NCBI GenBank assembly: GCA_041665625.1
Contig: JBAYIK010000003.1
Location: forward strand, 2,967-66,966
Length of the DNA: 64,000 nt
DNA from: Minisyncoccota bacterium
GTDB lineage: Bacteria > Patescibacteriota > Minisyncoccia > Phycocordibacterales > XYD1-FULL-46-19
Direction: 5' to 3'
Part shown: positions 3,657 to 60,392 of the stretch, one piece after another
How the letters are laid out: each line of letters starts with the position of its first letter
How positions within the stretch are numbered: position 1 is the stretch's first letter
Program-made: the position numbers and the translations under genes
The notes under the pieces: model-generated
What the model was told of the DNA's origin: nothing
Database searches by the model: none
What the model saw: the letters and a program-made list of their open reading frames with translations, nothing else

Positions 3657-3699
3657 TTATTGTATCTGATCTTTCTTCTTTCTAAAGTATAGAATCATA

Positions 3700-3730
3700 A
3701 AATGCCCTTCACTGGGGCATTTTATGATTT
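3700..3730 (+). terminator. Rho-independent terminator
   Basis: Hairpin ATGCCC-ttcactg-GGGCAT followed by TTTATGATTT, directly after the stop at 3656. Confidence 0.5.
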
Positions 3731-3825: not shown

Positions 3826-6800
3826 ATGATTACCAAAACTTTTAAGCTCCTCGCTCTTGTTTCCCTTTTCTGTCTTGTTGCTTTATTTAGCCAAACAGCC
3901 TTGGCCTGGGATCAACCACCCGCGGGGACGCCTCCGGCCTGTGACCCCAATGTCACCCAGGGTTGTAACCCTCCAATCAATACCGGCTCTGTTGACCAAA
4001 TTAAAAAAGGAGGGCTGACAATTAAAGGCATCGCGACGACGAGTGGAGCCTTGATGGTGAATAATAATTCTTATTTTAATTACAATACTTATCTCAATAA
4101 CGCTAAAGGCATTATCTTCAATAGCCAGGGCAAATCTGGGGCGAGTCAAACTCTTTACGGCATAATCTACGCCTCTTCAACTGATTTAGGTATCAATGGT
4201 GTTGGTACTGCTCCCAACCGCCTGGTGAAGGTTCGCGATAATCTCGTGGCTCTTGGTTCAATAACGTCACAAAGATTTTGTTTGGGGACAGACACGCCAG
4301 CAAATTGTCTGACCAAATGGCCTACTGCTGGTGTTTCTGGGGATTCTTATTGGACAAAAGTTACTGATCAAAACGAGATAATATATCCCAATGCTATTGG
4401 GGTAGCTGGGGCAACCGATCCTAATAACACCTTGGTCGGCCGAGCTGTGGATATTGCTATTGGAACGAACCTGACAGGGATAAAGGCAGATACGGCAGGT
4501 TCTCAATCCTTATCGTTAGTTACTAATGGGGTAAACCGTCTAACTATTGCTTCGAATGGAGCCCTCTCTGTTCCTGAATCGAAGCAGCTTAATCTCGGCA
4601 CTGGTGTTATAACTGGTTGGAATAATCTCGGCTACCTGGAGATTAAAGGTATCGCCAGTACAACGGTTAATACTAACTTGAATGTTCGTATCCGAGATTA
4701 TCTTACTACTAGTTACATTTGTAGCGTTGGTGGAATTTGCAAAAAAACTGAGGATATTGTTAATAATCTTGATGGCCTGTGGACTAAAATTACTGGCACT
4801 ACGAATATTAATTATAGTGCAGGCAATGTTGGGATCGGATCAATTGTTGCTTTGAATGGCACGACTAATAATAATCCAGGCTTGAAGCTTGAAGTGAGTG
4901 GTTCTAATGGCTTTCCAGCTACTAGTGGTACAGCCCAAACTGGTTCCCTTCGAATAAGTTCTGATGTTAGCCACGCTGTCTTAGATATGGGGGTGGGTAA
5001 TTTGAATGTTGGGGCTACCGACCCTAAGGCTGGTTGGCTTCAGGTTTCTAATAAATCTAGCTTGAACGCTATTCATCCATTATTCTTAAATCCTAATGGC
5101 GGTACCGTAAAAGTTCCAAGCCAAGGGATTAATGCTTTTGCTGTTGGAATGTCTGGTAATCCTGGCGAGGAAGAAGGTATGTTCACGGCAAAAACTACTC
5201 AACCTGGCATCTGGGCCGCCTCTATTACATCAGCCAATGCGAATGCTAAAGGCTTGCGAGTTTATAATCATGGTGGAGGGGTAATTGAGAATACTGCTCT
5301 CGATGTCGTTTTGTCCACAATAGGATCAGTTTTGAAGGTTGACGGCAAAGGGAATACCATCGCGCCATCTATCTTTTCTAACTCTCTAACTCTTTCTGGT
5401 GTGGCGCCAACAGACCCCGCTAACACAAAGAACGCTCTTTATGCTGTGACTGTTGGAGCAACCGGGGAAACGATAGTCCCAGGTAATCCTGGTGTGACTT
5501 ATGCAAGTTGTCGGGAATTTAGTAGTGCTAATAGCTCAGGATTTTATGACCTTTATGATACTATCCCTGAGTGTGTGGCCGATTATCCGGGCGTAGTTGT
5601 CATTGGGGCTACTCCAGAAACAACTGTTCCAGGTACTCCGGGCACGGCAAAACTTTTCTTTGATGGTAAGCCGATTGGGGATAGCGCTTGGACAGCAAAC
5701 GGTGATGATATCCAAAATAGTAATGCTGGTAACGTCTTTATCGGAGGGGCCACGATGCAAGTTAGTCGAGACAAGGTATCTATTCCTTCTTCTCAGAACA
5801 ATTCGCTTGTTGTCGGTATGCCCGGCAACTTTGGAACTGATGAAGTTGGTGTTTTTACGACCAAAACAGTTCAACCTGGTATCTGGGCCGCTTCTATCAC
5901 TTCAGCTAATGCCAACGCAAAAGGTTTAAGGGTCTACAATAATGGTGGAGCTTCCGAGAATACTGCCTTTGATGTTGCTCTTCCTTGGGGTTCAGCGTTG
6001 AAGGTTGACGGTAGAGGTGCCGTTACTATTCCTAATTGGCTCTTTGCTGGCAAAGCGATGATCGCTGGGCTCGATTTTGACAATAACTCTATTTACTTTG
6101 ATGGTGGCTGGGGTGCGAGGATTAATTCCCCGGCGATTGGAAATGGCCAATCCTTAAGATTTTATGAGGGATCTCCTAATACAAGAGAAAGATATGGGAT
6201 GATGTTGGAGAATGATCCTGTTAATACCGGGAAATCAAGACTTTTGGTTGATAAGATTTGCAATCATGATGGCTCTAAATGCATTAATATAGAAGATATC
6301 TCCGGAACAACAGGCCAAACTCCTCCTCCTCCTCCTCCAGTTGTCACCGGGGCCCCTTACATGGTTATCAATGGCTATAGTTCAAAGACTGTTCAGTATG
6401 TTGACTTAGCCAATCGAGACGTTGGGTACAGTATCACTGTCTATAATAGTATTGCTCAATGTAAAGTTCAAAGAAACGATTTGACAGGGACAGATCAGGT
6501 TATTCAGGTTTTGGGTAGCGGCGACATTGTCGTCAACGGTCACCCTGACAGTACTAATTATGGTGCTGAATTTTATTTCCCTAAACTCTGGAAGCCAATT
6601 GGAACAGCCACTGTTCTTGGCACTGCCGAAGATACTATCACCCTCTCTTGCCCTGGTTATGCACCTCAGACTATGTATGTTCGGGTGAAGCCAGCAATAA
6701 CTTCTTTAGACCTAGAATTAGCTAATAACGATAGAATCCCTCATGCGGCCTGGACGGCCACCCCGACGGGGTATGCTTCTGGTCGACAGGGGAACTGTAC

Positions 6801-7026
6801 TGTTGTCTTCTCTCAAGTAGGGGCAACAACTAATGGTGCGGCATATATCAAACCTGCCCAAACTAAAACTGGTGGAATGATCGGCGATGTTGAAGTCAGT
6901 ACTAAGGGCGCCCTTTGTCCAATTAATGATTGGAAAGAGCAGTATTGTCGAATAAGAGCGACTCTAACTTGTGAGCTTAATGGTTTGACAGTGACATCAA
7001 CAAAAGATTCTGAGAACACTTACTAG
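3826..7026 (+). CDS. Giant secreted surface protein (1066 aa) with an internal ~60-aa duplication, a poly-Pro linker and a conserved ~220-aa C-terminal module shared with 7558-10989
   Basis: Signal peptide MITKTFKLLALVSLFCLVALFSQTALA. Motif PPACDPNVTQGC is shared with the previous gene. Duplicated segment F(T)(A/T)KT.QPGIWAASITSANANAKGLRVYN.GG. PPPPPP linker at ~6320. The C-terminal YFPKLWK...TMYVRVKPAI...GRQG.C.VVFSQVGATT...GALCP...YCRIRATL.CELNGLT is near-identical to the C-terminus of giant 3. Confidence 0.6.
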   Translation: MITKTFKLLALVSLFCLVALFSQTALAWDQPPAGTPPACDPNVTQGCNPPINTGSVDQIKKGGLTIKGIATTSGALMVNNNSYFNYNTYLNNAKGIIFNSQGKSGASQTLYGIIYASSTDLGINGVGTAPNRLVKVRDNLVALGSITSQRFCLGTDTPANCLTKWPTAGVSGDSYWTKVTDQNEIIYPNAIGVAGATDPNNTLVGRAVDIAIGTNLTGIKADTAGSQSLSLVTNGVNRLTIASNGALSVPESKQLNLGTGVITGWNNLGYLEIKGIASTTVNTNLNVRIRDYLTTSYICSVGGICKKTEDIVNNLDGLWTKITGTTNINYSAGNVGIGSIVALNGTTNNNPGLKLEVSGSNGFPATSGTAQTGSLRISSDVSHAVLDMGVGNLNVGATDPKAGWLQVSNKSSLNAIHPLFLNPNGGTVKVPSQGINAFAVGMSGNPGEEEGMFTAKTTQPGIWAASITSANANAKGLRVYNHGGGVIENTALDVVLSTIGSVLKVDGKGNTIAPSIFSNSLTLSGVAPTDPANTKNALYAVTVGATGETIVPGNPGVTYASCREFSSANSSGFYDLYDTIPECVADYPGVVVIGATPETTVPGTPGTAKLFFDGKPIGDSAWTANGDDIQNSNAGNVFIGGATMQVSRDKVSIPSSQNNSLVVGMPGNFGTDEVGVFTTKTVQPGIWAASITSANANAKGLRVYNNGGASENTAFDVALPWGSALKVDGRGAVTIPNWLFAGKAMIAGLDFDNNSIYFDGGWGARINSPAIGNGQSLRFYEGSPNTRERYGMMLENDPVNTGKSRLLVDKICNHDGSKCINIEDISGTTGQTPPPPPPVVTGAPYMVINGYSSKTVQYVDLANRDVGYSITVYNSIAQCKVQRNDLTGTDQVIQVLGSGDIVVNGHPDSTNYGAEFYFPKLWKPIGTATVLGTAEDTITLSCPGYAPQTMYVRVKPAITSLDLELANNDRIPHAAWTATPTGYASGRQGNCTVVFSQVGATTNGAAYIKPAQTKTGGMIGDVEVSTKGALCPINDWKEQYCRIRATLTCELNGLTVTSTKDSENTY

Positions 7027-7046
7027 CAACAACTAACCTTAATAAA

Positions 7047-7412
7047 ATGGATTTTAATCAAAATTCTCCACTTCAAAATCCGCCAGAGGCAAAAATTGCT
7101 TACCCTCTAGCCGGTGATAAAAAAGGGAAAAAGAATCTTATCGTTGGCCTTATTGTCTTAGTTATAATTATTATTGTGGCCCTCATTCTTGTCGTTAACT
7201 ATAAGGGCTCTGACAAAATGAGCGTACCCGGTCTCACCGAGGAAGAGAGAAGGGCAATTGTTTATTCTTTAGAAAAAACAGCAGCGGAGGCTCCCAAAAT
7301 AACCGAGGAAGAGAGAAGGGCCGTTATTTACTCTTTGCAGGAGACGTCCAAGGCTGCTCCGGCCCTAACCCCCGCCGAGCGTCAGGACATTCTTAAATCT
7401 TTGGCTCAATAG
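7047..7412 (+). CDS. Small single-pass membrane protein with tandem TEEERRA(I/V)(V/I)YSL repeats
   Basis: Hydrophobic segment LIVGLIVLVIIIIVALILVV is followed by LTEEERRAIVYSLEKT / ITEEERRAVIYSLQET / TPAERQDILKSLAQ. Architecture parallels ORF 911-1225. Confidence 0.5.
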   Translation: MDFNQNSPLQNPPEAKIAYPLAGDKKGKKNLIVGLIVLVIIIIVALILVVNYKGSDKMSVPGLTEEERRAIVYSLEKTAAEAPKITEEERRAVIYSLQETSKAAPALTPAERQDILKSLAQ

Positions 7413-7437
7413 CCGCCTAAATAAAGATCAAGTAAAC

Positions 7438-7475
7438 AAAAACTCCCCAAGATAAAGAATGGGGAGTTTTTGTTT
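7438..7475 (+). terminator. Rho-independent terminator
   Basis: AACTCCCCA-agataaagaa-TGGGGAGTT followed by TTTGTTT. Confidence 0.55.
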
Positions 7476-7557
7476 GGGGATAAACGGATATCTTTTTTAG
7501 GACACAAGTTTTATAATAAGAGTATTACCATTATTTATCAATTTAATTTTTAATAAA

Positions 7558-10500
7558 ATGAACTTAAGAAAAATTTTCGTTCTTGCCCTATTTCTTTCTC
7601 TATTTGTTTTGCCGGCTTTGACGCAGGCAGCAACGACTCCTAATGTTCCTAATCCGAGCTGGACAGCTTGGGGGAGTTGCCCCGCCATCACCTCGGCTAC
7701 CGCCTGTGGTAATTTTCTGTATCGGACAAGAATTTGTACTGGCACCCGTTGTCCATCTATGCGTGTCCAGTCTAAAATCTGTGGTTATGCTCCTTGTTCT
7801 TTAGATCAAAATAAAGCGGAGTTTGTTGAGATTACCGGGGCTCCGAGTACTTCAACTCTCACTCCTCGGCAGGAGTTCGTCCTAACTGTCAAAGTGAAGA
7901 ACACTAGTGATATCTTTTGGCCTAAACAATCTACCGCCAACTTGGCTAAAAAGGCCTATGGTTATCGACTAGCTTTTGTTGATATTAATGCCGATGTTAA
8001 CGCTGATGGTTATAGCGACTACACCAACGTTTGGGATTACTCATACGGTCTGACTTTAAATCAAGATATCGCGACAGGTAGTATCGCCACTTTCTCCAAA
8101 AAAATTAAGGCTCCTTCTAAAGCTGGGACCTATACTCTAACGATGCAGATGTACCAGCAGAATCGAGGCCTTTTTGGACCAAAATCCGAAACAAAGACAT
8201 ATACGGTGGGGGGTGGCGATACCGATATCTTAGCTAACCCAACCCTCGATTCTTATGGTGACTGGGAGATAAAGACTGCGATGAAGAAGCTTAGTTGGGA
8301 TAAAAAAGCTTTTTCTTCTTCGTATGTAGAGATTTGGATGTGCCCATCCACCGTTGTCATTCCTTCTTCTGATGATTGTATTAAGTCATATGGAGGGACA
8401 GATGCTGTTAATAGCGGTTCCCGGGATATTGGGCTACCTTTAGGTGTTACCCCTGGACTTTGGAAGGTCTTCGTTACTGGTACGACAAACGGCACTGTCG
8501 GATCTGGTTTTACCCCAGTGGTAAAATTGGTTGATAATAGTGGTATCGTTTCTTTGGGAATTAGCGGTGTTGATGTTGGGGGCACAAGCTTTAATGAGGT
8601 TTCCGACATTTGGACAAGGGGGATGAGTAAAGCTGTTGACTGGGTAACTACCGGTGATATCAACCATGTTAAAATCTCAATTTGCCCAGTTGGGTTAGAT
8701 ACTTGCCTCTTAGCTAAACATAATGATGTTACTCTCGATAACGTTCTTAACGATGATGATTATTCTCCTGTCACCATTCCTTCAAATTCTACCTATACTC
8801 AAGCCAAAATTAAGGTTGAAGACAAAACTAACTCTAGCCGATTTGGTTTAAGTCCCGTCTTTACGGTGGGGAGTGCTAATGTCGTTGTCTTGGCCAACCC
8901 TTATTTTACTGACGCGAGTGACTGGAATATTACCGGCCAGACTAAGATTATTAAATGGGACCCTAAGGCCTTTAGTAATGGTGCTGGGAATGTAGATATC
9001 TGGATGTGTAAAGCTGGTGTTAATACCTTTAGCACGACAAATGGCGACTGCATTAACTCTTATTTAGGCGTACCTAACGCCGGGGAGAGACAAATTGGTT
9101 TACCTGGCAATATAACAACCGGGTATTGGAGAGTCTATATTAAGAATTCTCTCGTTGGAAACTATAATGGTGCTGGGTTTACCCCACAAGTAAGACTAGT
9201 GGGCGGTAATACTAACGTTCCTAACGGTTTTAGTGATGTTTTAATTGAAGGGGTTAGTGGTACGGCTGACAATACTTGGTATGCTGGAACGAAAAAGAAT
9301 ATTAGTTGGCGCCGTAATGGCACCATGCCTTCAATTAATCTTCGGATTTGTTCTGTTGGGGCTTCTTCCTGCCCTTCTTACTTACTTTATAATAGTGCAC
9401 AAACAAATGGCGTAAATGATGTTACCCTGCCCGATAATATTGCGCTTGCCCCTGGTGCCTATTTCCTTAAGGTTGAGAATTACGCTAACACTAACCAGTC
9501 GGCAGTGAGTGCCAACTTTACTGTGGGAGCGGCCCCTTCGGTCTTGGCTAGTCCCTATTTAACTAACACAAATGACTGGAATATTACGGGGCAGACAAAA
9601 ACTCTTAAGTGGGGAGCCTTAGCCTTTAATTCTGGTACTGGGAATGTAGATATTTGGATGTGTAAAGATGAGGCTGGCTTCAGCGCTACTAATGGTAACT
9701 GTCTCAATTCTTATTCTGGCGTGCCTAACGCTGGTGAAAAACAAATTGGTTTACCTAGCAACATAACAACTGGGTATTGGAGAGTCTATGTTAAGGGATC
9801 GAGAGGGGATAATTCAAGAGCCGGATTCACCCCAAAAATTAAATTAGTTAGTGATTCCGTCGCGACTGTCTATGGTTCTCTTCGAGCTGCTTCTAATCAA
9901 CCGTCAGTTGGGCAGGTTCGCATTGGTGCCACTAGTGGTAATGGTTGGACCAGTGATTATACTTACCCTCAGATGAATGATACTGTCTGTCCTGGTGGAA
10001 ACTGCATTGTCTCTCTTAAGACAACAAACTCGGCTTATCGCTTTGTGGCTAATAGTGGGCCTCAGACCTGCACAGGGGACGCTAACACTGGGGTAAGAGT
10101 TTGTACTTTCCCTCGTACAACTGACAATATCTCAGTCATCGGTACCTGGGAACTTATTCCTATTAATCCCCCCCCAGAGGCTACTGGCCCAACCTGGACA
10201 GCCGTAGGCTCTTGTTCCCTTCCTTGTGGTAGCGGGACTCAAACTTGGACCTGTGCTGGGACCGCCTGCCCTCGTGCTAGAGAGGTCCGATCCTGTAATA
10301 CTCAGTCTTGCCCCTTATCTGTTGCTCCATCGATGTCTATTAATGGTTATGATCAAAACCAAGTCTATGTTGATTTAAATACCAGAGATGATGGATATAA
10401 TATCTTAATTAAGAATAGCATCGTCGGTTGTTATGTGATGAGAAATGGTAACATTATTGAGCTTTTAAGTGGAGGTGATATTGCCGTGAGCGGTTATCGA

Positions 10501-10989
10501 GATGATCCTAATTATCCTTTGACTCCTTATTTCCCTAAACTTTGGAAAATTCCTGGGACCACCCGCGTCCTTGGTACAGCTGAGGATACTATCACTCTCC
10601 GTTGCCCTTCCGACTACGGTGATAAAACTATGTATGTTCGGGTGAAGCCAGCTATTGTTGATGCCGATTTCAAAATGGAGTTGAGAGGTAATGATAGGAA
10701 ACCTCATGCGACCTGGAAGGCTGTACCAAGAGGCTATTCCTCTGGCCGTCAGGGAAGTTGCTCTGTCGTGTTTTCACAAGTCGGTGCCACGACTGATGGT
10801 GCTACTTATAGCAAACCTAACCAAACTAAAACTGGTGGTATGGTTGGGGATCAAGAAGTTAGTACTAAAGGCGCGCTTTGTCCGGTTAACAACTGGCGGA
10901 CTCAATATTGTCGAATAAGGGCTACCCTTTCTTGCGAGTTAAATGGTTTGACAACGTCTGCTGTCAAAGATGCTGAAAATACTTATTAA
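7558..10989 (+). CDS. Giant secreted surface protein (1143 aa) with two TSP1-like Cys motifs, three tandem ~115-aa modules and the shared C-terminal module
   Basis: Signal peptide MNLRKIFVLALFLSLFVLPALTQA. W..W(G)SC...CG...R.R.C...C...C patterns lie at aa ~35-80 and ~880-925. Three tandem modules begin ANP(T/Y)..., ANPYFTDASDWNITGQTK..., ASPYLTNTNDWNITGQTK.... The C-terminal 220 aa are near-identical to those of 3826-7026. Confidence 0.6.
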   Translation: MNLRKIFVLALFLSLFVLPALTQAATTPNVPNPSWTAWGSCPAITSATACGNFLYRTRICTGTRCPSMRVQSKICGYAPCSLDQNKAEFVEITGAPSTSTLTPRQEFVLTVKVKNTSDIFWPKQSTANLAKKAYGYRLAFVDINADVNADGYSDYTNVWDYSYGLTLNQDIATGSIATFSKKIKAPSKAGTYTLTMQMYQQNRGLFGPKSETKTYTVGGGDTDILANPTLDSYGDWEIKTAMKKLSWDKKAFSSSYVEIWMCPSTVVIPSSDDCIKSYGGTDAVNSGSRDIGLPLGVTPGLWKVFVTGTTNGTVGSGFTPVVKLVDNSGIVSLGISGVDVGGTSFNEVSDIWTRGMSKAVDWVTTGDINHVKISICPVGLDTCLLAKHNDVTLDNVLNDDDYSPVTIPSNSTYTQAKIKVEDKTNSSRFGLSPVFTVGSANVVVLANPYFTDASDWNITGQTKIIKWDPKAFSNGAGNVDIWMCKAGVNTFSTTNGDCINSYLGVPNAGERQIGLPGNITTGYWRVYIKNSLVGNYNGAGFTPQVRLVGGNTNVPNGFSDVLIEGVSGTADNTWYAGTKKNISWRRNGTMPSINLRICSVGASSCPSYLLYNSAQTNGVNDVTLPDNIALAPGAYFLKVENYANTNQSAVSANFTVGAAPSVLASPYLTNTNDWNITGQTKTLKWGALAFNSGTGNVDIWMCKDEAGFSATNGNCLNSYSGVPNAGEKQIGLPSNITTGYWRVYVKGSRGDNSRAGFTPKIKLVSDSVATVYGSLRAASNQPSVGQVRIGATSGNGWTSDYTYPQMNDTVCPGGNCIVSLKTTNSAYRFVANSGPQTCTGDANTGVRVCTFPRTTDNISVIGTWELIPINPPPEATGPTWTAVGSCSLPCGSGTQTWTCAGTACPRAREVRSCNTQSCPLSVAPSMSINGYDQNQVYVDLNTRDDGYNILIKNSIVGCYVMRNGNIIELLSGGDIAVSGYRDDPNYPLTPYFPKLWKIPGTTRVLGTAEDTITLRCPSDYGDKTMYVRVKPAIVDADFKMELRGNDRKPHATWKAVPRGYSSGRQGSCSVVFSQVGATTDGATYSKPNQTKTGGMVGDQEVSTKGALCPVNNWRTQYCRIRATLSCELNGLTTSAVKDAENTY
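8233..9880 (+). repeat. Three tandem ~345-bp coding repeats inside giant 3; copies 2 and 3 are near-identical at the DNA level
   Basis: Conserved DNA blocks such as gactggaatattac.gg.cagac.aa, gggaatgtagatat.tggatgtgtaaag and ggtattggagagtctat recur at ~8894-9240 and ~9548-9880. A more diverged copy lies at ~8233-8580. Confidence 0.6.
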
Positions 10990-11013
10990 AAAGTAATTTA
11001 GTAAGACAAACAA

Positions 11014-11044
11014 AAAGAGAGGATAAAACCTCTCTTTTTGTTTG
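11014..11044 (+). terminator. Rho-independent terminator
   Basis: AGAGAGG-ataaaa-CCTCTCT followed by TTTTGTTT after the stop at 10989. Confidence 0.55.
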
Positions 11045-11082
11045 GGAATAAAAAAAATTTGCGTTATAATTTGTAGTAGTTT

Positions 11083-12843
11083 ATGCCTATTAGTTTGCAA
11101 AGTTTAAAAGATTTTTTGCTCGATGCCCGCCTTTTGGCCGCGCGAGATTTTGATAGCGTCATGACTGAAGCCGGCGGTGACAACCGTCGGGCGGAGGATC
11201 TTTTGGTTAGTAAGGGTCTTATTAGTGAAGATGATTTACGTCGAGCAAAGTCTTACATCCTAGGTATCCCGTTTGTTGATTTGCATAAGGAACGAATTCC
11301 AAAGGAAGTCCTTTTCTTAATCCCTGAACCGGTCGCTCGTAAACATAATATTGTTGCCTATAAAAAAGGGGTGGATACTCTTGAAGTGGCGATGCTTGAT
11401 CCGCTTGATCTTGAATCAATCGATTTCATAAAGAAGGGAACCGGTCTTAAGATTTTACCTCGCCTTACTGATACTGATTCGATTAAAGCGGTTCTTGTTC
11501 AGTATCAAAAAAGCTTGAAGGCCGAGTTTGGCGACCTTATTCAAAAAGAGTCTTTGACGATTAAAAATCAGGCTGAAGGGGTTTCGAATGAAGATCCGAC
11601 TAGTGAGGATCTTAAGCGCTTGGCCGAGGGTTTGCCAGTCGTGAGGATTGTCGAGTCACTTCTTGAGCACGCCATTATGCAGAAGGCCTCAGACATCCAT
11701 ATTGAGCCTTTTGAACGGGAGCTTGTCATTCGTTACCGGATTGATGGGGTCCTTCATGACGCAATGATTCTTCCTAAAGAAACGGCTTCGGGGATTGTTG
11801 CTCGTATCAAAGTCTTGGCTAATCTTCGCCTGGATGAGAAGCGCCTCCCTCAAGATGGACGCTTTAAGACGACGAGCCACGGAGCTAACGTCTCTTACCG
11901 TGTCTCAACTTTACCAATTCAGTTTGGTGAGAAGGTCGTTATGCGTCTTCTTCCCGATTCTGTCCACGGGCTAACTCTTGAATCTGTCGGCTTCCACGGA
12001 GAAGGATTGGAAAAAATTCAGAAGGCGATTCAGCGCACGACAGGGATGCTCTTGGTCACGGGCCCAACTGGTTCGGGTAAATCGACAACTCTCTATGCCT
12101 TGCTTGATATTTTAAATACTCCTGACGTTAATATCTCGACGGTCGAAGACCCTGTTGAGTATCAGATCCGGCGCGTTAATCAAACTCAGGTTCGTCCTGA
12201 TATCGGTTTAACTTTTGCTTCAGGCCTTCGTACTCTCGTTCGTCAGGATCCTGACATTATCATGGTGGGAGAAATTCGTGACCAAGAAACAGCTAGTTTG
12301 GCTATTAATGCTGCCTTGACTGGGCATTTAGTTCTTTCTACTCTCCACACTAACTCGGCCGCAGGCACCATCCCTCGTCTCCTTGATTTAGGAGCAGAAC
12401 CCTTCTTATTGGTTTCGACTGTTGAGGTGATTGTTGCCCAACGTTTAGTACGTAAATTGTCTGACCCCAAGGAACCTTATATCCCTACTCCTGATGAGAT
12501 AAAAGCCTTGGGCGAAAAGGCTGATCTCCCCAAGGTGTTGTCTTGTCTTAAGAAAGAAAAAATTATTAAAGAAACTGACGACTGGGCCAATATCAATTTC
12601 TATCGGCCCAAGATTTCGGCTGACCCGGCTAACCCTGACGGCTATGCCGGTCGTCTTGCTATTGTCGAAGTCTTGACGATGTCTCGCGTTCTACGGGAAA
12701 TGATTATTAAGAACGCAACAGCCGAAGATCTTAACCGAGAAGCTCGAGAGGAAGGGATGCTCACTATGCTTGAGGACGGACTCTTCAAGGCGGTCCAGGG
12801 TTTAACCTCAGTTGAAGAAATATTGAGAGCTGTAACAGAATAG
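11083..12843 (+). CDS. pilB: Type IV pilus / type II secretion assembly ATPase (GspE/PilB family)
   Basis: Walker A LVTGPTGSGKSTTLYALL, Asp box, the Walker B/His box MVGEIRD...LVLSTLHTN, and an N-terminal GspE_N-like domain. Confidence 0.85.
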   Translation: MPISLQSLKDFLLDARLLAARDFDSVMTEAGGDNRRAEDLLVSKGLISEDDLRRAKSYILGIPFVDLHKERIPKEVLFLIPEPVARKHNIVAYKKGVDTLEVAMLDPLDLESIDFIKKGTGLKILPRLTDTDSIKAVLVQYQKSLKAEFGDLIQKESLTIKNQAEGVSNEDPTSEDLKRLAEGLPVVRIVESLLEHAIMQKASDIHIEPFERELVIRYRIDGVLHDAMILPKETASGIVARIKVLANLRLDEKRLPQDGRFKTTSHGANVSYRVSTLPIQFGEKVVMRLLPDSVHGLTLESVGFHGEGLEKIQKAIQRTTGMLLVTGPTGSGKSTTLYALLDILNTPDVNISTVEDPVEYQIRRVNQTQVRPDIGLTFASGLRTLVRQDPDIIMVGEIRDQETASLAINAALTGHLVLSTLHTNSAAGTIPRLLDLGAEPFLLVSTVEVIVAQRLVRKLSDPKEPYIPTPDEIKALGEKADLPKVLSCLKKEKIIKETDDWANINFYRPKISADPANPDGYAGRLAIVEVLTMSRVLREMIIKNATAEDLNREAREEGMLTMLEDGLFKAVQGLTSVEEILRAVTE

Positions 12844-12874
12844 TTCAATAAACTCACTACAAGTAATTATTATC

Positions 12875-14098
12875 ATGATTAATTTTTCTTATCGAGTTAG
12901 ACGTGACGGTGGAGGAGAAGAAACGGGGGAGCGTCTCTCGACGGATCGTTTTGCATTGGCCCGAGAATTGCGGGGAGAGGGGCTAACGGTTATTGCTGTC
13001 AACGAAATTAGGGTTAAGCCGGGCAATGATATTTTGTCGAAGATAAATATTTTTGGTCGCCGAGTAAAATTGAAAGATAAAATTATTTTTGCGAGCAACC
13101 TTAGTTCAATGCTTTCGGCGGGTTTGTCTTTGTCGCGGGCTTTGTCGGTTTTGTCCAAACAAACGAATAATAGAAACTTTAAAGGAGTCATCGACAAGGT
13201 CGGTGCAAAAATTAATAAGGGTGATAGTTTTAGTCGAGCCCTTGCTTCTTACCCTAAAGTTTTTCCTGAAGTTTTTGTGGCCATGATTGAAGCGGCTGAG
13301 GAGTCTGGCAAAATGCCTGAAGCCCTCAAATTAATTGCTGAGCAGCTAGAAAAAAGTTATGGCTTGCGCCGTAAAATTATGGGAGCTCTTATATACCCGG
13401 CAGTAATTGTGGTTGTCATTTTTGCCATCGGTATCTTGATGATGATTTTTCTCATCCCGACCTTGTCATCGACCTTTAGGGAATTAGATGTTCCTCTACC
13501 AGTGACAACGCTCTTTGTTATTAATCTCTCTGATTTTCTTGTTAATAATCTTGTTCTTGTTCTTATTTTAATAGCCGGGGCGGTAGCGGGGGCCTTCGTC
13601 TTCATCCGGTCAGATCTTGGCAAAAGTTACTCTTCAGCTCTTTTCTTATATATACCTTTTGTAAAGAACCTCACGCGCCAGGCCAATTCGGCGACGGTCT
13701 TGCGGACTATCTCTTCTCTTATCTCTGCTGGTGTCAGTATGACTCAAACGTTAGAAATTACGGCTCGCGTGGTTCAAAATGAGTATTATCGCAAAGTTCT
13801 AACTGAAGCTTATGATAAGGTCCAAAAGGGCTTACCTCTTTCAGCCGTGTTTGCTGCTCACCAAAACCTCTTTCCCATTTTTGCCAGTGAAATGTCCGCC
13901 GTGGGGGAGGAAACAGGTAAGTTGCCCGAACTATTACTTAAAGGAGCCCTCTTTTTTGAAGACGAAGTTGATCAAGTCACAAAAAATCTTTCCACTGTCA
14001 TTGAGCCCGTCTTAATGGTCTTTATTGGTATTGCTGTAGGCTTCTTTGCTATATCAATGATCGGTCCAATGTATTCACTTTCTAATGCGATTAAATAA
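12875..14098 (+). CDS. pilC: Type IV pilus / T2SS inner-membrane platform protein (GspF/PilC family)
   Basis: Two GspF-type repeats (GLSLSRALSVLSKQ..., ...SLISAGVSMTQTLEITARV), three TM segments, and synteny directly after the GspE ATPase. Confidence 0.8.
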   Translation: MINFSYRVRRDGGGEETGERLSTDRFALARELRGEGLTVIAVNEIRVKPGNDILSKINIFGRRVKLKDKIIFASNLSSMLSAGLSLSRALSVLSKQTNNRNFKGVIDKVGAKINKGDSFSRALASYPKVFPEVFVAMIEAAEESGKMPEALKLIAEQLEKSYGLRRKIMGALIYPAVIVVVIFAIGILMMIFLIPTLSSTFRELDVPLPVTTLFVINLSDFLVNNLVLVLILIAGAVAGAFVFIRSDLGKSYSSALFLYIPFVKNLTRQANSATVLRTISSLISAGVSMTQTLEITARVVQNEYYRKVLTEAYDKVQKGLPLSAVFAAHQNLFPIFASEMSAVGEETGKLPELLLKGALFFEDEVDQVTKNLSTVIEPVLMVFIGIAVGFFAISMIGPMYSLSNAIK

Positions 14099-15989
14099 AG
14101 GAAAAACTGGTGGATTTACCCCCACACCAAAGATGTTTCTTGCACCAGTGATTTTTATTATGGAATTTCTCAAAGATAAGATTAAATTTGTTTATGGCAA
14201 TTTTTCTATTGGCTTGGTTAAAAGCAAAAAATCGAGAAAATCTTTGGTGTGGGGGTTTACTCTTGTTGAGTCGGTTGTGGCGACAGCCATTTTTGTCATA
14301 ATCGCTCTAGGAATTTACCAAGCCTTCTATAGTTTGAGCGGTTTGGTCCAGATATCTAAACTCAAATCGACAGCCGTTTCCCTTGCCAATGAAAAGTTAG
14401 AAATTGCTCGTAATTTATCCTATTACGATCTTGGAGTTATTGATGGAGCTCCACCTGGGAAGATCCCCCAAGAGAAAAATGAAATTCGGAATGGCATTAA
14501 TTTTATTGTTAGTACAACAGTGAGAAGTATTGACGACCCTTTTGACGGTACGATTGCCAGCAGTACGGATCTAAACCCCGCGGACTATAAACTTGTTTCC
14601 GTTGAAGTCGCTTGCCCTAGTTGTCGCAATTATCAACCTATTACTTTGGCCACCCGGGTATCTCCCAAGAATTTGGAGATGAGCCTTGGTCACGGCGCCC
14701 TCTTTGTTCAAGTTATTGATGCTGAAGGCAAGGGGATTCCTGATGTCGATGTGAAGGTCACTAATACAGCGACCACTACAATTGTTATTGATAAAACGAA
14801 TAATGCGGGGCTTTTGCAGTTGGTGGACCTTCCTCCCGGCGAGCTTGTTTATCGGGTAGAGGTTAGTAAATCTGGTTATTCTTCCTCTCGGACTTATGCT
14901 CCGGGAGAGAACGGCTTAGCTCGTCCAGCTAATTTGAATCCAACTGTTTCGGCTAGCCAATTAACAAAAATGACTCTCGTTATTGATAAACTTAGTAATT
15001 TGCAAGTGAGAACGATTGATCAATATTGTCAGACTCCTTCTCGTTCTTTTTCTTTCCATTTGCAGGGGGCGAAATACTTGGATTCGGAAAATTCTATTTT
15101 GAAATATAACCAAGACTTAACAGTTTCTGGCCTACTTAGTCTCACCGGACTAGAATGGGATACCTATAAATTTACTCCTAATGATGAAACTTGGGCAATT
15201 GTGGGCTCTTTTCCTTTACAGTCAGTTCTTTTGCTTCCCGGTGCCACGAGTGAGGTTAAGCTTCTCTTGGCCCCTCCCGACGGACGGGGACTTCTCGTTT
15301 CGGTTAAGGATGGGACATCTCTTGGCCTGCCTTTGTCTGATGTCGCCGTTACTTTAAGCAAAGCGGGAGACACTCGGTCCCAGAGTACTAGCCAGGGATT
15401 CTTCAGGGACACTGATTGGTCTTCTGGAGATAGTACTGGCGATGGTAATATCACCCTTAATGATCCGGTCGGGGACCTTAAATTAAAGGAGGTTCTCGGC
15501 AGTTATGAGCCTGAAGGTTTCTTAATTTCTCAACTCTTCGATACTGGGACAAGCTCCACTGCTTTTTATAGTATTGTATTTCAGCCAACTATCCAGGATC
15601 CAGCAACGGGGGTAGATAGTGTTCGCTTTCAGATCGCTTCAAGTAATGACCCCGCGACAACCACTTGGGATTTTACTGGGCCAGATGGTTTGGCGACAAG
15701 TTTTTATACTAGCTCCGGTCAAACTATCCATTCTCAACATAACGACAGGCGTTATGTGCGTTATAAGGTATACTTATCAACAGCTAACCGAAGTTATAGC
15801 CCAAGTCTCTCTGATGTGGCTATAACTTATAGCTCTGGGTGTTTACCTTTTGGTCAAGTCTTTTTCTCCGGGTTAAGTTCGGGGACTTATAACGTCACGG
15901 CCGAAAAAGATGGCTACCAATCTTATACCGGCTCGATCTCTATTGATAGTAATTGGCAGATACTAGAAATTCCTCTCAATTTGCAATAA
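14085..15989 (+). CDS. Large prepilin-like protein (class III signal, G|FTLVE) with carboxypeptidase-regulatory-like beta-sandwich domains; start codon uncertain
   Basis: N-terminal KSLVWG|FTLVESVVATAIFVIIALGIY matches the type IV prepilin cleavage/methylation motif. Beta-rich modules follow (e.g. ALFVQVIDAEGKGIPDVDVKVTNT...). Alternative starts at 14124 or 14160 are possible. Confidence 0.6.
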   Translation: MRLNKGKTGGFTPTPKMFLAPVIFIMEFLKDKIKFVYGNFSIGLVKSKKSRKSLVWGFTLVESVVATAIFVIIALGIYQAFYSLSGLVQISKLKSTAVSLANEKLEIARNLSYYDLGVIDGAPPGKIPQEKNEIRNGINFIVSTTVRSIDDPFDGTIASSTDLNPADYKLVSVEVACPSCRNYQPITLATRVSPKNLEMSLGHGALFVQVIDAEGKGIPDVDVKVTNTATTTIVIDKTNNAGLLQLVDLPPGELVYRVEVSKSGYSSSRTYAPGENGLARPANLNPTVSASQLTKMTLVIDKLSNLQVRTIDQYCQTPSRSFSFHLQGAKYLDSENSILKYNQDLTVSGLLSLTGLEWDTYKFTPNDETWAIVGSFPLQSVLLLPGATSEVKLLLAPPDGRGLLVSVKDGTSLGLPLSDVAVTLSKAGDTRSQSTSQGFFRDTDWSSGDSTGDGNITLNDPVGDLKLKEVLGSYEPEGFLISQLFDTGTSSTAFYSIVFQPTIQDPATGVDSVRFQIASSNDPATTTWDFTGPDGLATSFYTSSGQTIHSQHNDRRYVRYKVYLSTANRSYSPSLSDVAITYSSGCLPFGQVFFSGLSSGTYNVTAEKDGYQSYTGSISIDSNWQILEIPLNLQ

Positions 15990-16567
15990 TGAAAAAAAAC
16001 TTTAACAACCTAAAGGGGCTTACCCTGATTGAGTTACTTGTAGCAATAAGCATTAGTCTCCTTGTTGGTATAGCCGTTATTAATTTTGGCCGTGATATTT
16101 TCTATCAAAATTATCTTGTTTCTAAGTCGTTGGTATCGGAGAACGAAGCTAAGTCTACCTTGAGCCGAATTGTTACCGAGCTTCGCCGGGCCGTTCCCGC
16201 AGGGACGGGGGCTTACCCTCTCGATACTGTTAGCTCTACTACCCTTATTTTTTATAGTGATACTAATGGAGATGGAGTGAGCGAGAGACTTCATTATTGG
16301 CGAGACGGCTTATCTCTTAAGCGAGGTCTAACTAGCCCTTCTGGTTCGCCCTATACTTATTCTCCAACAGATGGGAGTGTCGGTATAGCCGTGAATACTC
16401 TTATTAATGCAACGGGAACCATTTTTAGTTATTATGATCAGAACTATGATGGTTCAAGTTCCCCATTGTCCCTTCCTGTTAATGTCGCGAGCGTTCGTTT
16501 GATTAAAATAGATTTAGGAAATTTAAGTAATCAGGTCATGCTTCGGGTTCTAAAGGATAATTATTAA
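15989..16567 (+). CDS. Type IV pilin / pseudopilin-like protein
   Basis: MKKNFNNLKG|LTLIELLVAISISLLVGIAV prepilin N-terminus. The ATG at 15989 overlaps the upstream stop (TAATG). The ORF-track start at 15953 is probably too far upstream. Confidence 0.65.
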   Translation: MKKNFNNLKGLTLIELLVAISISLLVGIAVINFGRDIFYQNYLVSKSLVSENEAKSTLSRIVTELRRAVPAGTGAYPLDTVSSTTLIFYSDTNGDGVSERLHYWRDGLSLKRGLTSPSGSPYTYSPTDGSVGIAVNTLINATGTIFSYYDQNYDGSSSPLSLPVNVASVRLIKIDLGNLSNQVMLRVLKDNY

Positions 16568-16568
16568 A

Positions 16569-17984
16569 ATGAAAAAACTAAAACAAAAAGGTTATTTATT
16601 AATTCAAGTTTTAGTTTTTGGGGCTGTGGGTCTTGTCATTATTGGCGGGCTCATCGGCTTTGCCGGAACAAGCTTAAAATATTCTAATTATCTAAAATCG
16701 AGAGAACAAGCTTTGGCCATTGCTGAGGCTGGCCTTGATTATTACCGCTGGCATCTGGCCCATGCCCCTTTAGATTTTAAGGACGGGACGGGGCAGGCGG
16801 GGCCTTATGTTCATTCTTTTCCTGACAAAAACAATGATATCATCGGTCAGTTTACGTTAACGGTTATTCCTCCAGGTATGGGCTCGACTATTGTCACTAT
16901 CCAGTCTAAAGGAGAAGTCTTTGACGGTTCTGGAGCTAGTCGTACTTTAGAAAGCAAGCTCGCCATCACTTCCTTAGCTAAATATGCGGTGGTTGCCGAC
17001 GCGGATCTTCGTTTTGGCGAGGGGACAGTAATTTTTGGCCCCATTCACTCTAATGGGGGGATTCGTTTTGACGGTTTGGCTAATAATTTGGTTACCAGCG
17101 CCTTGCCCAATTATAATGATCCTGATCATACTGGGGATAATGAGTATGCTGTCCATACTCACCTTGGGACTGATGATCCGACGCCTCCGACTTCTTTGCC
17201 TCTTAGGGCCGATGTTTTCCGCGCGGGAAGACAAATCTCTGTCCCGGCAGTAAGCTTCCTTGGCCTCTCAGCTGACATGGCCGTACTTGAGACCCTGGCC
17301 AGCTCAACGGATGGAGTCTTTCTCTCTAATTCAGGGGCATCGGGCTATGAATTAGTTCTTAAGACAACGGGGAAATTTGATGTCTACAAAGTTAATTCTG
17401 TTCGTTCCCCAAGCAACTTTTTTTGTTTTAATAGTAATTTCCAAACCGGTTGGGGGACTTGGAGCATTAATGATAGGACTAAAATTTTACCAGGAGATAG
17501 ACCTTTCCCGGTTAACGGTATAATTTTTGTTAAAGATAATATCTGGGTCTCGGGGACTATAGATGGTAAACGTTTAACCATTGCCTCTTCGATGGGGGCG
17601 AGCGGGAATACGAGTATCACCGTCAATCAAGACCTTAGATATACTCACTATAATGGCGAGGATGCTTTGGCTCTTATTGCCCAGAATAATATCAATGTTG
17701 GTGAATATAGTAGCGATGTCTTAAGAATTGATGGCGCCCTAGTGGCCCAAAGCGGGCGTGTCGGGCGTTTCTATTATAATTTCGCTTGCCCGAGCAATAG
17801 CCTTTCTACCCTGAATCTTTATGGGATGATTGCCTCTAAAGAGCGTTATGGTTTCTCTTATGATGACGGTCGAGGTTATGCTAATCGTAATATTACCTAT
17901 GATGGCAATTTCCTCTATGGTCCACCACCTTCTTTTCCCCTGACTTCTGACCAATACCAGACTATCTCCTGGCGGGAAATTTAG
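16569..17984 (+). CDS. PilX-like minor pilin / pilus-tip-associated protein
   Basis: N-terminus KGYLLIQVLVFGAVGLVIIGGLI...QALAIAEAGLDYY resembles the PilX N-terminal domain. Sits downstream of the pilin genes. Confidence 0.5.
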   Translation: MKKLKQKGYLLIQVLVFGAVGLVIIGGLIGFAGTSLKYSNYLKSREQALAIAEAGLDYYRWHLAHAPLDFKDGTGQAGPYVHSFPDKNNDIIGQFTLTVIPPGMGSTIVTIQSKGEVFDGSGASRTLESKLAITSLAKYAVVADADLRFGEGTVIFGPIHSNGGIRFDGLANNLVTSALPNYNDPDHTGDNEYAVHTHLGTDDPTPPTSLPLRADVFRAGRQISVPAVSFLGLSADMAVLETLASSTDGVFLSNSGASGYELVLKTTGKFDVYKVNSVRSPSNFFCFNSNFQTGWGTWSINDRTKILPGDRPFPVNGIIFVKDNIWVSGTIDGKRLTIASSMGASGNTSITVNQDLRYTHYNGEDALALIAQNNINVGEYSSDVLRIDGALVAQSGRVGRFYYNFACPSNSLSTLNLYGMIASKERYGFSYDDGRGYANRNITYDGNFLYGPPPSFPLTSDQYQTISWREI

Positions 17985-37617: not shown

Positions 37618-39267
37618 ATGAAAAAATATATTTTAGGAGCCATCCTCGTTTTATCGCTGGTTGTCGTTCCTTTTGTATCTTCGGCTCAGACTTCTGGGAT
37701 TGCCCCCTGCCCGATTATCACGGTTAATTTATCTCTGGGTAGCACTGGGCCCGACGTCACGGCGCTTCAGAAGTATTTGATTGAAGAAGGCCTGTTAAAC
37801 ATAGAAGGGGGTGGCCCCACTGGCTATTTTGGTGATCTAACTAGGGCTGCTGTTGTCCGATGGCAGACTGATCACAACATTCTCAACGAGACTGGCTTCG
37901 GTCCCTTGTCTCGAGCCGCTTTAGACTCCCTCTGTTCTGTCTCAGGTAAAGAAATTTCTCCTCGCATCTCAGGTGTCTCTGGTCAAATCCAGGGTAAAAT
38001 TTATCCTGGGGCTTGGATTAAACTTACAGGGAATCGTTTGACGGCTGACGTACGTATTACTAAATCTGGTAATCCAAACATTGTTATCAAGCCTGAGGCA
38101 AAAAGTGTTACTTATTATGATGAGGGCCGAGAGAGAATGAGGATTGACTTCCAGCTTAGTTCCACCACTCCGGTTGGGAGCTACTATATCAATGTCTATA
38201 GTGCTACGGGAGTGAAGAGCCCAACAGTGCCTTTCCGTGTTGTTAAGAGGCCAGTGGCCGCCGACGGCCTTCTTGATCCGGTTATTGTCTCTGTTTCTGC
38301 CAGCACTACTGATATCTACCCTGGTTCATGGGTTAAATTACTTGGCAAAAGACTCAGTGGTGATGTTCGAATTACTAAACATAATTATCCCAACATCATT
38401 ATCAAGCCGGTGGCAAGAATTAATGCAGACGCCTCGAGGGTTGATTTCAAACTTCCTCCTGAAGTAACTGTTGGTGCTTACTATCTTAATGTTTACAGCG
38501 ATGTCGGACGCAATAGTAATACTATGCCATTGAGGGTGGTGGGCTCTAATTCTGAGGAAAATGTTCAACCAACAATTACCTTTGTTTCTCCAAGTGGAGG
38601 AGAAACATTTAAGTCAGGGCAACAAGTGATTGTTAGATATGATATGGCTAATTTCCTTCGAGTTGCTAACGTTCAAATTCAACTTAATAAAGGAGCTATT
38701 TATCCTGGGGGTCCTTATAACCCAGTGGGCAATGCTACTAATTATATGCCCGCCGGTCATTATACTTTTACTATTCCAGCAGATGCTCCTTCGGGGGATG
38801 ACTATAGCTTTATGATTAATTCTGATTACCCTAATACGGAAACTAGTGCTCATTTCCAATCGAACATTTTTAGTATCGTTGCCCCCGATACCTCTGCCTC
38901 TGGTAGGCCACGTATAGAGGGAGAGGTTCTTACTGGTGTCTCTGGTCATGGCACTGGCCATTGGCTTAGAATTCGTGGGGCTCGTCTGACGAACAATGTC
39001 GTTATTCGTAAATACGGCGGAACAGCCACGACAACTCTCTCTGGGGGTATCGTTTCTGGTGTTCCTGGTAATGCTGCCGCTTTCCTTGATATTGAGTTAA
39101 ATATCCCAGTTGGGAGCTATCAGCTTAATATAATTGGTTCTGATGGCACGGTTAGTAACACAGTAAGACTGAACGTCACAGCGGAAACGGCAAGCTCAAG
39201 AGCTAGTCAAATTGCAGCTGTCGCTAGCGCTATCCAGGCTCTGGTTGCTCAACTTAAGGTTCAGTAA
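37618..39267 (+). CDS. Secreted cell-wall-binding protein: N-terminal PG_binding_1-like domain plus three IPT/TIG-like beta-sandwich repeats; inserted between rplB and rpsS
   Basis: Signal peptide MKKYILGAILVLSLVVVPFVSSA. LSLGSTGPDVTALQKYLIEEGLL...GYFGDLTRAAVVRWQ matches the peptidoglycan-binding-domain consensus. Repeats begin YPGAWIKLTGNRLTADVRITK..., YPGSWVKLLGKRLSGDVRITK..., GHWLRIRGARLTNNVVIRK.... Confidence 0.6.
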   Translation: MKKYILGAILVLSLVVVPFVSSAQTSGIAPCPIITVNLSLGSTGPDVTALQKYLIEEGLLNIEGGGPTGYFGDLTRAAVVRWQTDHNILNETGFGPLSRAALDSLCSVSGKEISPRISGVSGQIQGKIYPGAWIKLTGNRLTADVRITKSGNPNIVIKPEAKSVTYYDEGRERMRIDFQLSSTTPVGSYYINVYSATGVKSPTVPFRVVKRPVAADGLLDPVIVSVSASTTDIYPGSWVKLLGKRLSGDVRITKHNYPNIIIKPVARINADASRVDFKLPPEVTVGAYYLNVYSDVGRNSNTMPLRVVGSNSEENVQPTITFVSPSGGETFKSGQQVIVRYDMANFLRVANVQIQLNKGAIYPGGPYNPVGNATNYMPAGHYTFTIPADAPSGDDYSFMINSDYPNTETSAHFQSNIFSIVAPDTSASGRPRIEGEVLTGVSGHGTGHWLRIRGARLTNNVVIRKYGGTATTTLSGGIVSGVPGNAAAFLDIELNIPVGSYQLNIIGSDGTVSNTVRLNVTAETASSRASQIAAVASAIQALVAQLKVQ

Positions 39268-59993: not shown

Positions 59994-60392
59994 GGGTATG
60001 TAACGGTATCGACAGGTAGTTTGTCGTTAGCTGTGTATGTGGAGATGTCGACTTCCTCCTTAAATTGTCGGCAAAAACGTTAAATGCCAACGCATCTAAC
60101 AAGGGACTTGTGGCTTCGCCATATTTCTCTCCAGCCTTCGCTTTAGCCTAGTGCTGGTGTTCGTTTGAATCGCAGTCTGGATGACTCAAACGGGCATAAT
60201 AAATTCTGGACTAGCAAGTGGAAATTTCTCGGTCCACAAGCAAAACTAAGAGAATCGACTACTTAAGCTCTTGGTTATTTCTGACTTAAGTAATTTAAAA
60301 TTATCTTCGGATAATCTGAATTAACCTAAACATATAGATTCGCTAGGGATTGCTATTTGCACGGGAGTTCGACTCTCCCCATATCCACCACT
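59994..60392 (+). ncRNA. ssrA: tmRNA (transfer-messenger RNA, ssrA), immediately downstream of smpB
   Basis: The 5' end GGGUAUGUAACGGUAUCGACAGG resembles the conserved tmRNA 5' motif (GGGG.UGAUUCUGGAUUCGACGGG). The 3' end has a T-arm GGGAG-UUCGACU-CUCCC, acceptor strand CAUAUCC pairing with the 5' GGGUAUG, and a CCA. A candidate tag ORF GCC AAC GCA ... TTA GCC TAG (ANASNKGLVASPYFSPAFALA*) lies at 60086-60151. Confidence 0.6.

Follow-up and report, generated by a model that had tools for sequence, protein, structure and literature searches.

Why should two secreted proteins that are unrelated over their first ~840-920 residues end in the same piece, with their genes leading a type IV pilus operon? 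The question is raised by proteins A and B, encoded on the forward strand at 3826-7026 (1066 aa) and 7558-10989 (1143 aa), respectively, of a 64 kb stretch of contig JBAYIK010000003.1 from a Patescibacteria genome (the whole of this stretch is termed the window, and all coordinates are window positions). The initial annotation of the two open reading frames (ORFs) described giant proteins with unrelated upstream parts and with C termini that align without gaps and almost verbatim. BLASTP comparison of A with B gives one strong high-scoring segment pair (HSP; A 816-1066, B 901-1143, 149 of 254 positions identical, E=4e-85), a similarity that is not of the low-complexity type, and the lack of relationship upstream is confirmed, all other HSPs having E>=0.5. 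The homology of the C termini is thus real, but they are neither gapless nor near-verbatim copies: global alignment of the shared module has 145 of 218 residues identical (66.5% overall, rising from 61% in the first half to 72% in the second), with three indels and nine gap columns, and the DNA identity is 67-70%. At 1066 and 1143 residues, moreover, the proteins are large rather than giant.

The module itself is sharply bounded. It begins abruptly at the motif AP[YS]M.INGY, at residue 843 of A (nt 6352) and residue 923 of B (nt 10324), and extends to the last residue of each protein (...ENTY), i.e. over residues 843-1066 of A and 923-1143 of B, or ~220 aa, with six cysteines conserved in both copies, as the Cys-containing ~220-residue module of the initial annotation would have it. 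What precedes it differs: in A a Pro-rich linker, TPPPPPPVVTG (6319-6351, + strand), connects the stalk to the module, and in B a Cys-rich TSP1-like repeat takes this place. Each copy comprises two sub-domains, all on the forward strand. In A, sub-domain 1 (6352-6699, residues 843-958) carries two of the conserved cysteines, at 879 and 942, and sub-domain 2 (6700-7023, residues 959-1066, ending ...ENTY) carries four, at 991, 1031, 1041 and 1049; in B the corresponding units lie at 10324-10656 (residues 923-1033) and 10657-10986 (residues 1034-1143). The cysteines probably form disulfides. No third copy of the module was found by tblastn in the window.

Structure prediction indicates that the module consists of two distinct β-sandwich domains. 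An AlphaFold2 model of the whole module, built from an alignment of 2-3 sequences, is all-β with a predicted local distance difference test score (pLDDT) of 68.8; sub-domain 2 modelled alone reaches a pLDDT of 79.8 and a predicted template modelling score of 0.74, and forms a ~100-residue β-sandwich of seven strands in two sheets which, as predicted, is superposable on members of the fibronectin type III (FN3), immunoglobulin (Ig)-like and macroglobulin (MG) groups. With moderate model confidence, sub-domain 2 is accordingly described as an FN3/MG-like seven-strand β-sandwich; sub-domain 1 is predicted, at low to moderate confidence, to be all-β and has no confident fold assignment. By hhalign, sub-domain 1 is related neither to sub-domain 2 nor to the stalk repeats of B. 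Family scans of the whole proteins (Pfam at E<=0.1, NCBIfam at E<=0.01) and comparison with PHROG gave no match to the module, the isolated halves have no Pfam match even at E<=1, no Pfam Ig or FN3 model was matched, and neither single-sequence nor profile searches matched the module to a sequence in the PDB. A lectin-like tip, one of the roles put forward at the outset, is not borne out, there being no lectin or carbohydrate-binding module (CBM) signature and only generic resemblance to FN3/Ig/macroglobulin sandwiches. A phage origin of such a tip likewise finds no support: the matches in BFVD were weak and of a generic tandem-Ig kind (TM about 0.3). Literature searches returned no published description of the module, which is a real, lineage-restricted and previously uncharacterised domain pair with a common fold.

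The same searches bear on whether the module is simply a known anchor. The C termini of A and B, ...CELNGLTVTSTKDSENTY and ...CELNGLTTSAVKDAENTY, are hydrophilic and have no sorting motif, LPXTG or hydrophobic tail; profiles for SLH, CWB2, PG_binding_1 and LysM do not match A or B; and the C-terminal domain (CTD) of the type IX secretion system (T9SS; Por_Secre_tail/TIGR04183) has no profile match in A, B or the isolated halves, nor were T9SS genes seen among the window proteins scanned. Thus, none of the well-known sorting or anchor domains in Pfam, NCBIfam or PHROG is matched. Wall-domain detection does work on this genome, as PG_binding_1 is found in three other secreted-looking proteins of the window (37618-39267, 43036-44619 and 49302-52976), so that other surface proteins of this organism do bear a recognisable domain for wall binding. 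Two of these three lie inside or beside the region of ribosomal-protein genes, and the remaining one is a right-handed β-helix protein of 1224 residues with PG_binding_1 at its C terminus.

A divergent form of a known sorting or export signal, be it a T9SS CTD, LPXTG, PEP-CTERM, GlyGly-CTERM, SLH, CWB2 or dockerin, would fit the extreme C-terminal position of the module, and the T9SS CTD has a general shape similar to the ~100-residue, seven-strand sandwich of sub-domain 2. We nevertheless consider this very improbable: Pfam and NCBIfam give no match, the isolated halves none at E<=1; the end of the protein (...KDSENTY) has neither a hydrophobic segment nor a motif; 220 residues in two domains are far above the size of a tripartite sorting signal; and the host is a Patescibacterium, whereas T9SS is a Bacteroidota system. 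Of the common receptor-binding, sorting or anchoring domain that the initial annotation had envisaged, a bounded module on two otherwise unrelated secreted proteins stands, and a shared role in binding, docking or anchoring is still a reasonable reading of it.

The phyletic range of the module is extremely narrow in current data. An exhaustive hidden Markov model (HMM) search of 1.84 billion representative proteins gave four matches. Two of them, B and a truncated A, come from a Joint Genome Institute (JGI) contig, L001, of the same population as the window. The third, P0003 (5174 aa, E=2.7e-21), was rejected as a relative of the module, its score being spurious and built from eleven near-identical ~340-residue repeats of 8.8 bits each; it is a caution on summed HMMER scores for repetitive giant proteins. 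The fourth, P0004, is a 911-residue protein from an unrelated European Nucleotide Archive (ENA) assembly, the last ~110 residues of which align to sub-domain 2 with 35-38% identity, keep all four of its cysteines plus the terminal tyrosine and come without sub-domain 1. The whole module is thus carried, among 1.84 billion representative proteins, only by this population. GTDB species genomes, JGI metagenomes, IMG/VR and phage genomes yielded no further copies; the word-index searches are lossy, having found only the truncated A of the same population and missed both B and P0004. Other genomes hence add sub-domain 2 alone, in P0004. In all four carriers of sub-domain 2 (A, B, P0004 and an ortholog of A from a further metagenome, described below) it lies at the extreme C terminus and ends in tyrosine; the module is therefore a composite, of which sub-domain 2 is an independent, always-terminal unit.

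How old is the sharing? The initial annotation had proposed that the module is swapped by recombination between surface proteins, and pointed to identical DNA near 6673 and 10628. The two copies differ at a proportion of 0.67 of their synonymous sites (pS; synonymous distance, dS, about 1.6) and 0.23 of their non-synonymous sites. With synonymous sites near saturation, A and B carry old paralogs of the module that have undergone no recent wholesale gene conversion, and the proposed recent swapping is not upheld. At most, slight DNA identity has persisted or been re-established locally. Codons are identical at 75 of the 145 identical residues, compared with 61.8+-5.5 expected (P~0.01), and the identical DNA is indeed present as a 26-nt exact run (6670-6695 and 10627-10652) that encodes TMYVRVKPA at the junction of the sub-domains, compared with a mean longest run of 13 nt (P~0.0014); both expectations come from simulations in which codons were drawn anew according to the codon usage of the window. 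In terms of identical synonymous sites, then, there is a slight codon excess and one long run against overall near-saturation.

A second line of evidence comes from L082, a 1-kb contig from another JGI metagenome and a related population, which carries the last 158 codons of an A ortholog, S2 (the small gene between A and B) and the start of B at ~80% DNA identity to the window. Between the module and this ortholog dS is 0.78 and the non-synonymous distance (dN) 0.047, a ratio of 0.06, compared with a dN of 0.24 for the adjacent S2. The module is under strong purifying selection and, by its low dN relative to S2, ranks with the most tightly constrained stretches of the locus, which is what contact with a conserved partner would lead one to expect. 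Within this constraint there is one exceptional patch, 115 nt in sub-domain 2 of A (6792-6906, + strand, about residues 990-1027). When sites are compared three ways, those at which the ortholog shares the state of B and those at which it shares the state of A stand at 15:9 inside the patch and 11:91 outside it (Fisher P 4e-7; maximum-χ2 permutation P=2e-4). For several of the replaced residues the codon, too, is that of B, and the sites that differ only synonymously are split 5:5, which is not significant alone. Two histories fit this pattern, namely patchy gene conversion over a short tract that involved A-type and B-type copies in one lineage, and a burst of substitutions on the branch of A; the pattern suggests that limited A-type/B-type exchange may have occurred. 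Recombination between the two surface proteins, as originally claimed, is thus retained in a weak, small-tract form, and a wholesale swap is not.

The same patch may also be variable within the population. Over window positions 6144-16549, contig L001 differs at 7 of 10,406 positions; all seven differences are non-synonymous and all are in A or B (in A V993L, two changes at V994, and Q997K; in B I528M, Y740S and E1009G), with 5/7 in the module. Four of these single-nucleotide polymorphisms (SNPs) are clustered at 6802-6814, within the mosaic patch, and none falls in the 5.5 kb of pilus genes. These differences could be strain variation or assembly error; two other assemblies, L083 and L084, are identical to the window. 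Mutagenesis of the patch by a diversity-generating retroelement was considered and rejected within the window, the only sequence searched for it, as this holds no template repeat (only B, at ~70%) and no reverse transcriptase; its sole YxDD motif in a long ORF is in a peptidase S9 gene.

Taken at their strongest, these observations would make the module a recombination cassette, exchanged by gene conversion between A and B in a manner resembling pilE/pilS surface variation. The 26-nt run at the sub-domain junction (P~0.0014), the slight surplus of identical codons, the 115-nt tract with B-type states, B-type codons included, in the L082 ortholog (permutation P=2e-4) and the four SNPs of L001, clustered in 13 nt of that tract, all point in this direction. 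Against it stand the 67-70% DNA identity and near-saturated synonymous sites, by which any exchange has been rare and short, the 5:5 split of synonymous-only sites in the tract, and the fact that a substitution burst on the A branch could give the same pattern; further, the evidence on the tract comes from a single metagenome contig of 1 kb and a single variant assembly, and the window contains no silent donor copies. On balance we think it unlikely that the module serves as such a cassette. The sharing of the module is instead old domain shuffling between two surface proteins: the module became attached to two unlike stalks, in each case precisely where a domain begins, and was then kept by strong purifying selection.

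The remainder of A and B is consistent with this modular history. Both proteins carry what look like cleavable Sec signal peptides; that of A, read from the sequence, is Sec-type, with MITKTFKLLALVSLFCLVALFSQTALA ahead of the apparent cleavage site and WD after it. From its N terminus, A comprises the signal peptide, a region (residues 1-363) resembling that of its upstream neighbour P1, a fibre-like middle with an internal repeat, the poly-Pro linker and the module. The internal repeat is a duplication of 23 residues, QPGIWAASITSANANAKGLRVYN, at residues 459 and 683 (5200-5268 and 5872-5940); the DNA of its two copies is identical at 55 of 69 positions, and each copy lies within a longer repeated segment. 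Protein B has a signal peptide, a TSP1-like repeat, a stalk of three tandem repeat units with Ig-like domains (BigA_beta and Kre9_KNH-like; Pfam BigA_beta 2e-7), a second TSP1-like repeat and the module. The two TSP1-like repeats are Cys-rich segments of the pattern W..W..C...CG...R.C, at ~7642-7800, after the signal peptide, and at 10189-10323, before the module; the latter matches TSP1_spondin at E=0.004 with 17.8 bits, compared with a cutoff of 41, and its W..W/C..CG pattern is visible by eye. The N-terminal 920 residues of B have no relative in the window.

P1 (1251-3656, + strand, 801 aa) is a secreted protein without the module and without a match in Pfam, NCBIfam or PHROG. Its N-terminal ~350 residues are paralogous to those of A (BLASTP 33% identity over ~400 columns, E=4e-37, covering the first ~360 residues, 3826-4914 of the window in A), and the two share a signal peptide and, directly behind it, a Pro-rich segment and the motif C..(P/D)...GC..P(I/V)N, an N terminus that P0004 has as well. 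The C terminus of P1 is a different Cys-rich domain of ~90 residues (CPSGYEALAGGVSCGGG...), which has no PDB or Pfam match. The first ~160 residues of P0004 are in turn homologous to the corresponding part of A and P1; a dockerin-like domain, at the Pfam threshold, lies near the N terminus of this protein, and TSP1-like repeats come directly ahead of its sub-domain 2 (TSP_1 E=9.5e-4, 19.8 bits vs a cutoff of 21.6). A is therefore itself a mosaic of a P1-type head and a B-type tail, and both ends of the proteins, in the P1/A/P0004 and A/B sets, behave as exchangeable modules. The layout of a conserved C terminus with a variable N terminus, which the initial annotation called the reverse of classical polymorphic toxins, hence holds for the A/B pair, but P1, A and P0004 show the opposite arrangement.

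What, then, does the module do? It would give A and B one common binding specificity. The reading that we tentatively favour, while granting it somewhat less than even chances, is that it is a cell-proximal docking or retention device on the cell's own envelope or pilus: it would hold A and B non-covalently on a shared partner at their own cell's surface, leaving the two stalks free for different jobs. Since neither protein has a recognisable anchor (LPXTG, transmembrane tail, SLH, CWB2 or PG_binding), something must retain them on the cell. Conserved C-terminal domains common to different surface proteins usually anchor, sort or dock, as with SLH, CWB2, LPXTG, the T9SS CTD, the trimeric autotransporter adhesin (TAA) anchor and the PilY1 C-domain, and it is on the absence of another anchor, the high conservation of the module and this usual role of shared C-terminal domains that the preference is based. 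The always-terminal position of sub-domain 2 and the order of the genes, which run on one strand into those of the pilus, also count in its favour. The partner might be the wall of the cell or its S-layer, the tip of the pilus or one of the minor pilins from the downstream genes, or S2.

Several points weigh against docking. The partners just named are candidates only, and an association with the pilus is what we infer from gene order. The module has two carriers in the population and almost none elsewhere in 1.84e9 proteins, and a general anchor would be expected more widely. P1, A and P0004 have the A-type N terminus in common and each of the three ends differently, an arrangement that fits a cell-proximal N terminus and a C terminus that is the functional tip. 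The clustered amino-acid changes in sub-domain 2 of A would suit a specificity surface better than an anchor. Finally, the structural models are of moderate confidence and are derived from alignments of 2-3 sequences.

These points lead to the converse proposal, that the module is a distal binding tip, an outward head on two arms with a single ligand, on host cell or substrate, as its target, the conserved N-terminal regions or other parts holding the proteins to the cell. The sharing of the N-terminal ~160-360 residues by P1, A and P0004, with differences at the end, follows the conserved-N, variable-C logic of fibres and of the receptor-binding proteins of phages, and the dockerin-like domain near the N terminus of P0004 could be its docking device. 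The variable or mosaic patch in sub-domain 2 of A, with all 7 L001 differences non-synonymous and 5 of them in the module, and the very narrow phyletic range, as in host-interaction domains of fast turnover, also suit a tip. There is, further, a precedent in the Saccharibacteria (PMC10633639), where Southlakia epibionticum has essential secreted FN3, dockerin and VCBS proteins that the authors speculate are adhesins targeting host glycans (PMC10633639). On the other hand, an ortholog dN/dS of about 0.06 and the high conservation of the paralogs are unlike a tip engaged in an arms race; no lectin or CBM signature is present and the fold matches are generic; and the differences of L001 could be errors, being seen in a single assembly while two others are identical to the window. 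We consider a distal tip possible and less probable than docking on the cell's own surface, which remains our preferred reading.

The genomic setting places A and B among the leading genes of a type IV pilus operon. Over its first 18 kb the window carries a single cluster of genes, all on the forward strand, in the order S1-P1-A-S2-B-pilB-pilC-pilins. In longer assemblies of the same population nusA and tig (trigger factor) lie upstream of S1 and are divergently transcribed, so the cluster begins at S1 (911-1225, 104 aa, directly 5' of P1), which from its ORF and sequence is a small single-pass membrane protein. S2 (7047-7412, + strand, 121 aa), 20 bp past A and 145 bp ahead of B, likewise encodes a small single-pass membrane protein. 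B is followed by genes for a PilB-like ATPase (11083-12843; T2SSE and MshEN matches), a PilC-like platform protein (12875-14098; T2SSF match) and three prepilin-like proteins (14085-15989, 15953-16567 and 16569-17984) with prepilin-type N termini (N_methyl, CarboxypepD_reg and ComGE/GspJ-like), all on the forward strand. Between P1 and A, at 3693-3729, lies a perfect hairpin with a 15-bp stem, the strongest terminator-like structure of the first 18 kb, which suggests that A, S2 and B may be transcribed apart from S1 and P1.

S1 and S2 share an unusual layout, a transmembrane helix followed by three repeats of the motif [LI][TS]xxE[KR]xxx[LI]xxL, which occurs nowhere else in the window. Despite this common motif there is no BLAST-detectable similarity between the two, and neither has a family match. 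The repeats of S2 are three of the TEEERRAxxYSL type, and its ortholog in L082 retains them at an overall identity of just 62%. S1 lies beside P1, and S2 between A and B. To a more elaborate scheme we give little credence: the two small proteins, with their three putatively helical repeats, would be membrane receptors for the Cys-rich end-domains of large secreted fibres, S1 for that of P1 and S2 for the A/B module, in a dedicated, undescribed surface-display system of Paceibacteria that would set different adhesive stalks beside the pilus machinery, with short-tract gene conversion tuning a specificity patch in sub-domain 2.

Elsewhere the window has the content of an ordinary chromosome, with genes for TIM, PGK, RecJ, ComEC, EF-G, EF-Tu, ribosomal proteins and SecY, and a tmRNA gene (59994-60390; Rfam RF00023, 137 bits), the sole Rfam family at gathering threshold in the window. 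EF-G is nearest (77%) to that of a Candidatus Paceibacterota metagenome-assembled genome (MAG) and then to those of other Patescibacteria. A and B are identical to NCBI entries MFA6476222.1 and MFA6476224.1, respectively, both annotated as 'hypothetical protein' of a Candidatus Paceibacterota MAG; the organism is thus an uncultured member of the Paceibacterota, which as CPR bacteria are ultra-small.

The sharing of a domain pair by A and B is an ordinary phenomenon, and represents neither a new kind of system nor a new principle. Its interest lies in the organisms concerned. The Candidate Phyla Radiation (CPR), also known as the Patescibacteria, makes up a large share of bacterial diversity; its cultivated members all live attached to other microbes, and how they attach is essentially unknown outside the Saccharibacteria. 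Encoded directly upstream of pilus genes and sharing a well-conserved end-piece that is confined to their lineage, A and B are concrete candidates for components of a Paceibacterota attachment apparatus. The module, as a clean ~220-residue unit of two domains and six cysteines, is usable for binding assays or for pull-down of its partner.

Comparison with known systems helps to define what is particular to this pair. The module belongs by predicted shape with the FN3, Ig-like and MG domains, but differs from them in having <15% sequence identity and no Pfam Ig/FN3 match, and its sub-domain 2 has four conserved cysteines and a strictly C-terminal position. Phage receptor-binding fibres and polymorphic toxins have, like P1, A and P0004, a conserved N terminus with differing C-terminal ends; in A and B this polarity is reversed, there is no PHROG, phage-genome or IMG/VR match, and neither a toxin domain nor an immunity gene was detected, the small neighbouring genes encoding the repeat-bearing membrane proteins described above. 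The Southlakia proteins are, like A and B, secreted multi-domain proteins, in this case of a CPR epibiont that likewise depends on type IV pili (PMC10633639); they come from another class of Patescibacteria and belong to recognisable Pfam families, unlike the module, and the likeness is one of description only. Proteins with SLH, CWB2, LPXTG, T9SS CTD or TAA anchors combine, as A and B do, variable N-terminal stalks with a common C-terminal piece in one genome, but the module shares no homology, motif or hydrophobic tail with these and has two carriers only. Similar in setting are the PilY1/PilC adhesins, which dock on the pilus through a conserved domain at the C terminus and vary in their N-terminal part. 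A and B have no PilY1 or Neisseria_PilC match and their module is predicted to be a sandwich, not a β-propeller; like those of these adhesins, however, their genes stand together with the genes of type IV pili and of minor pilins.

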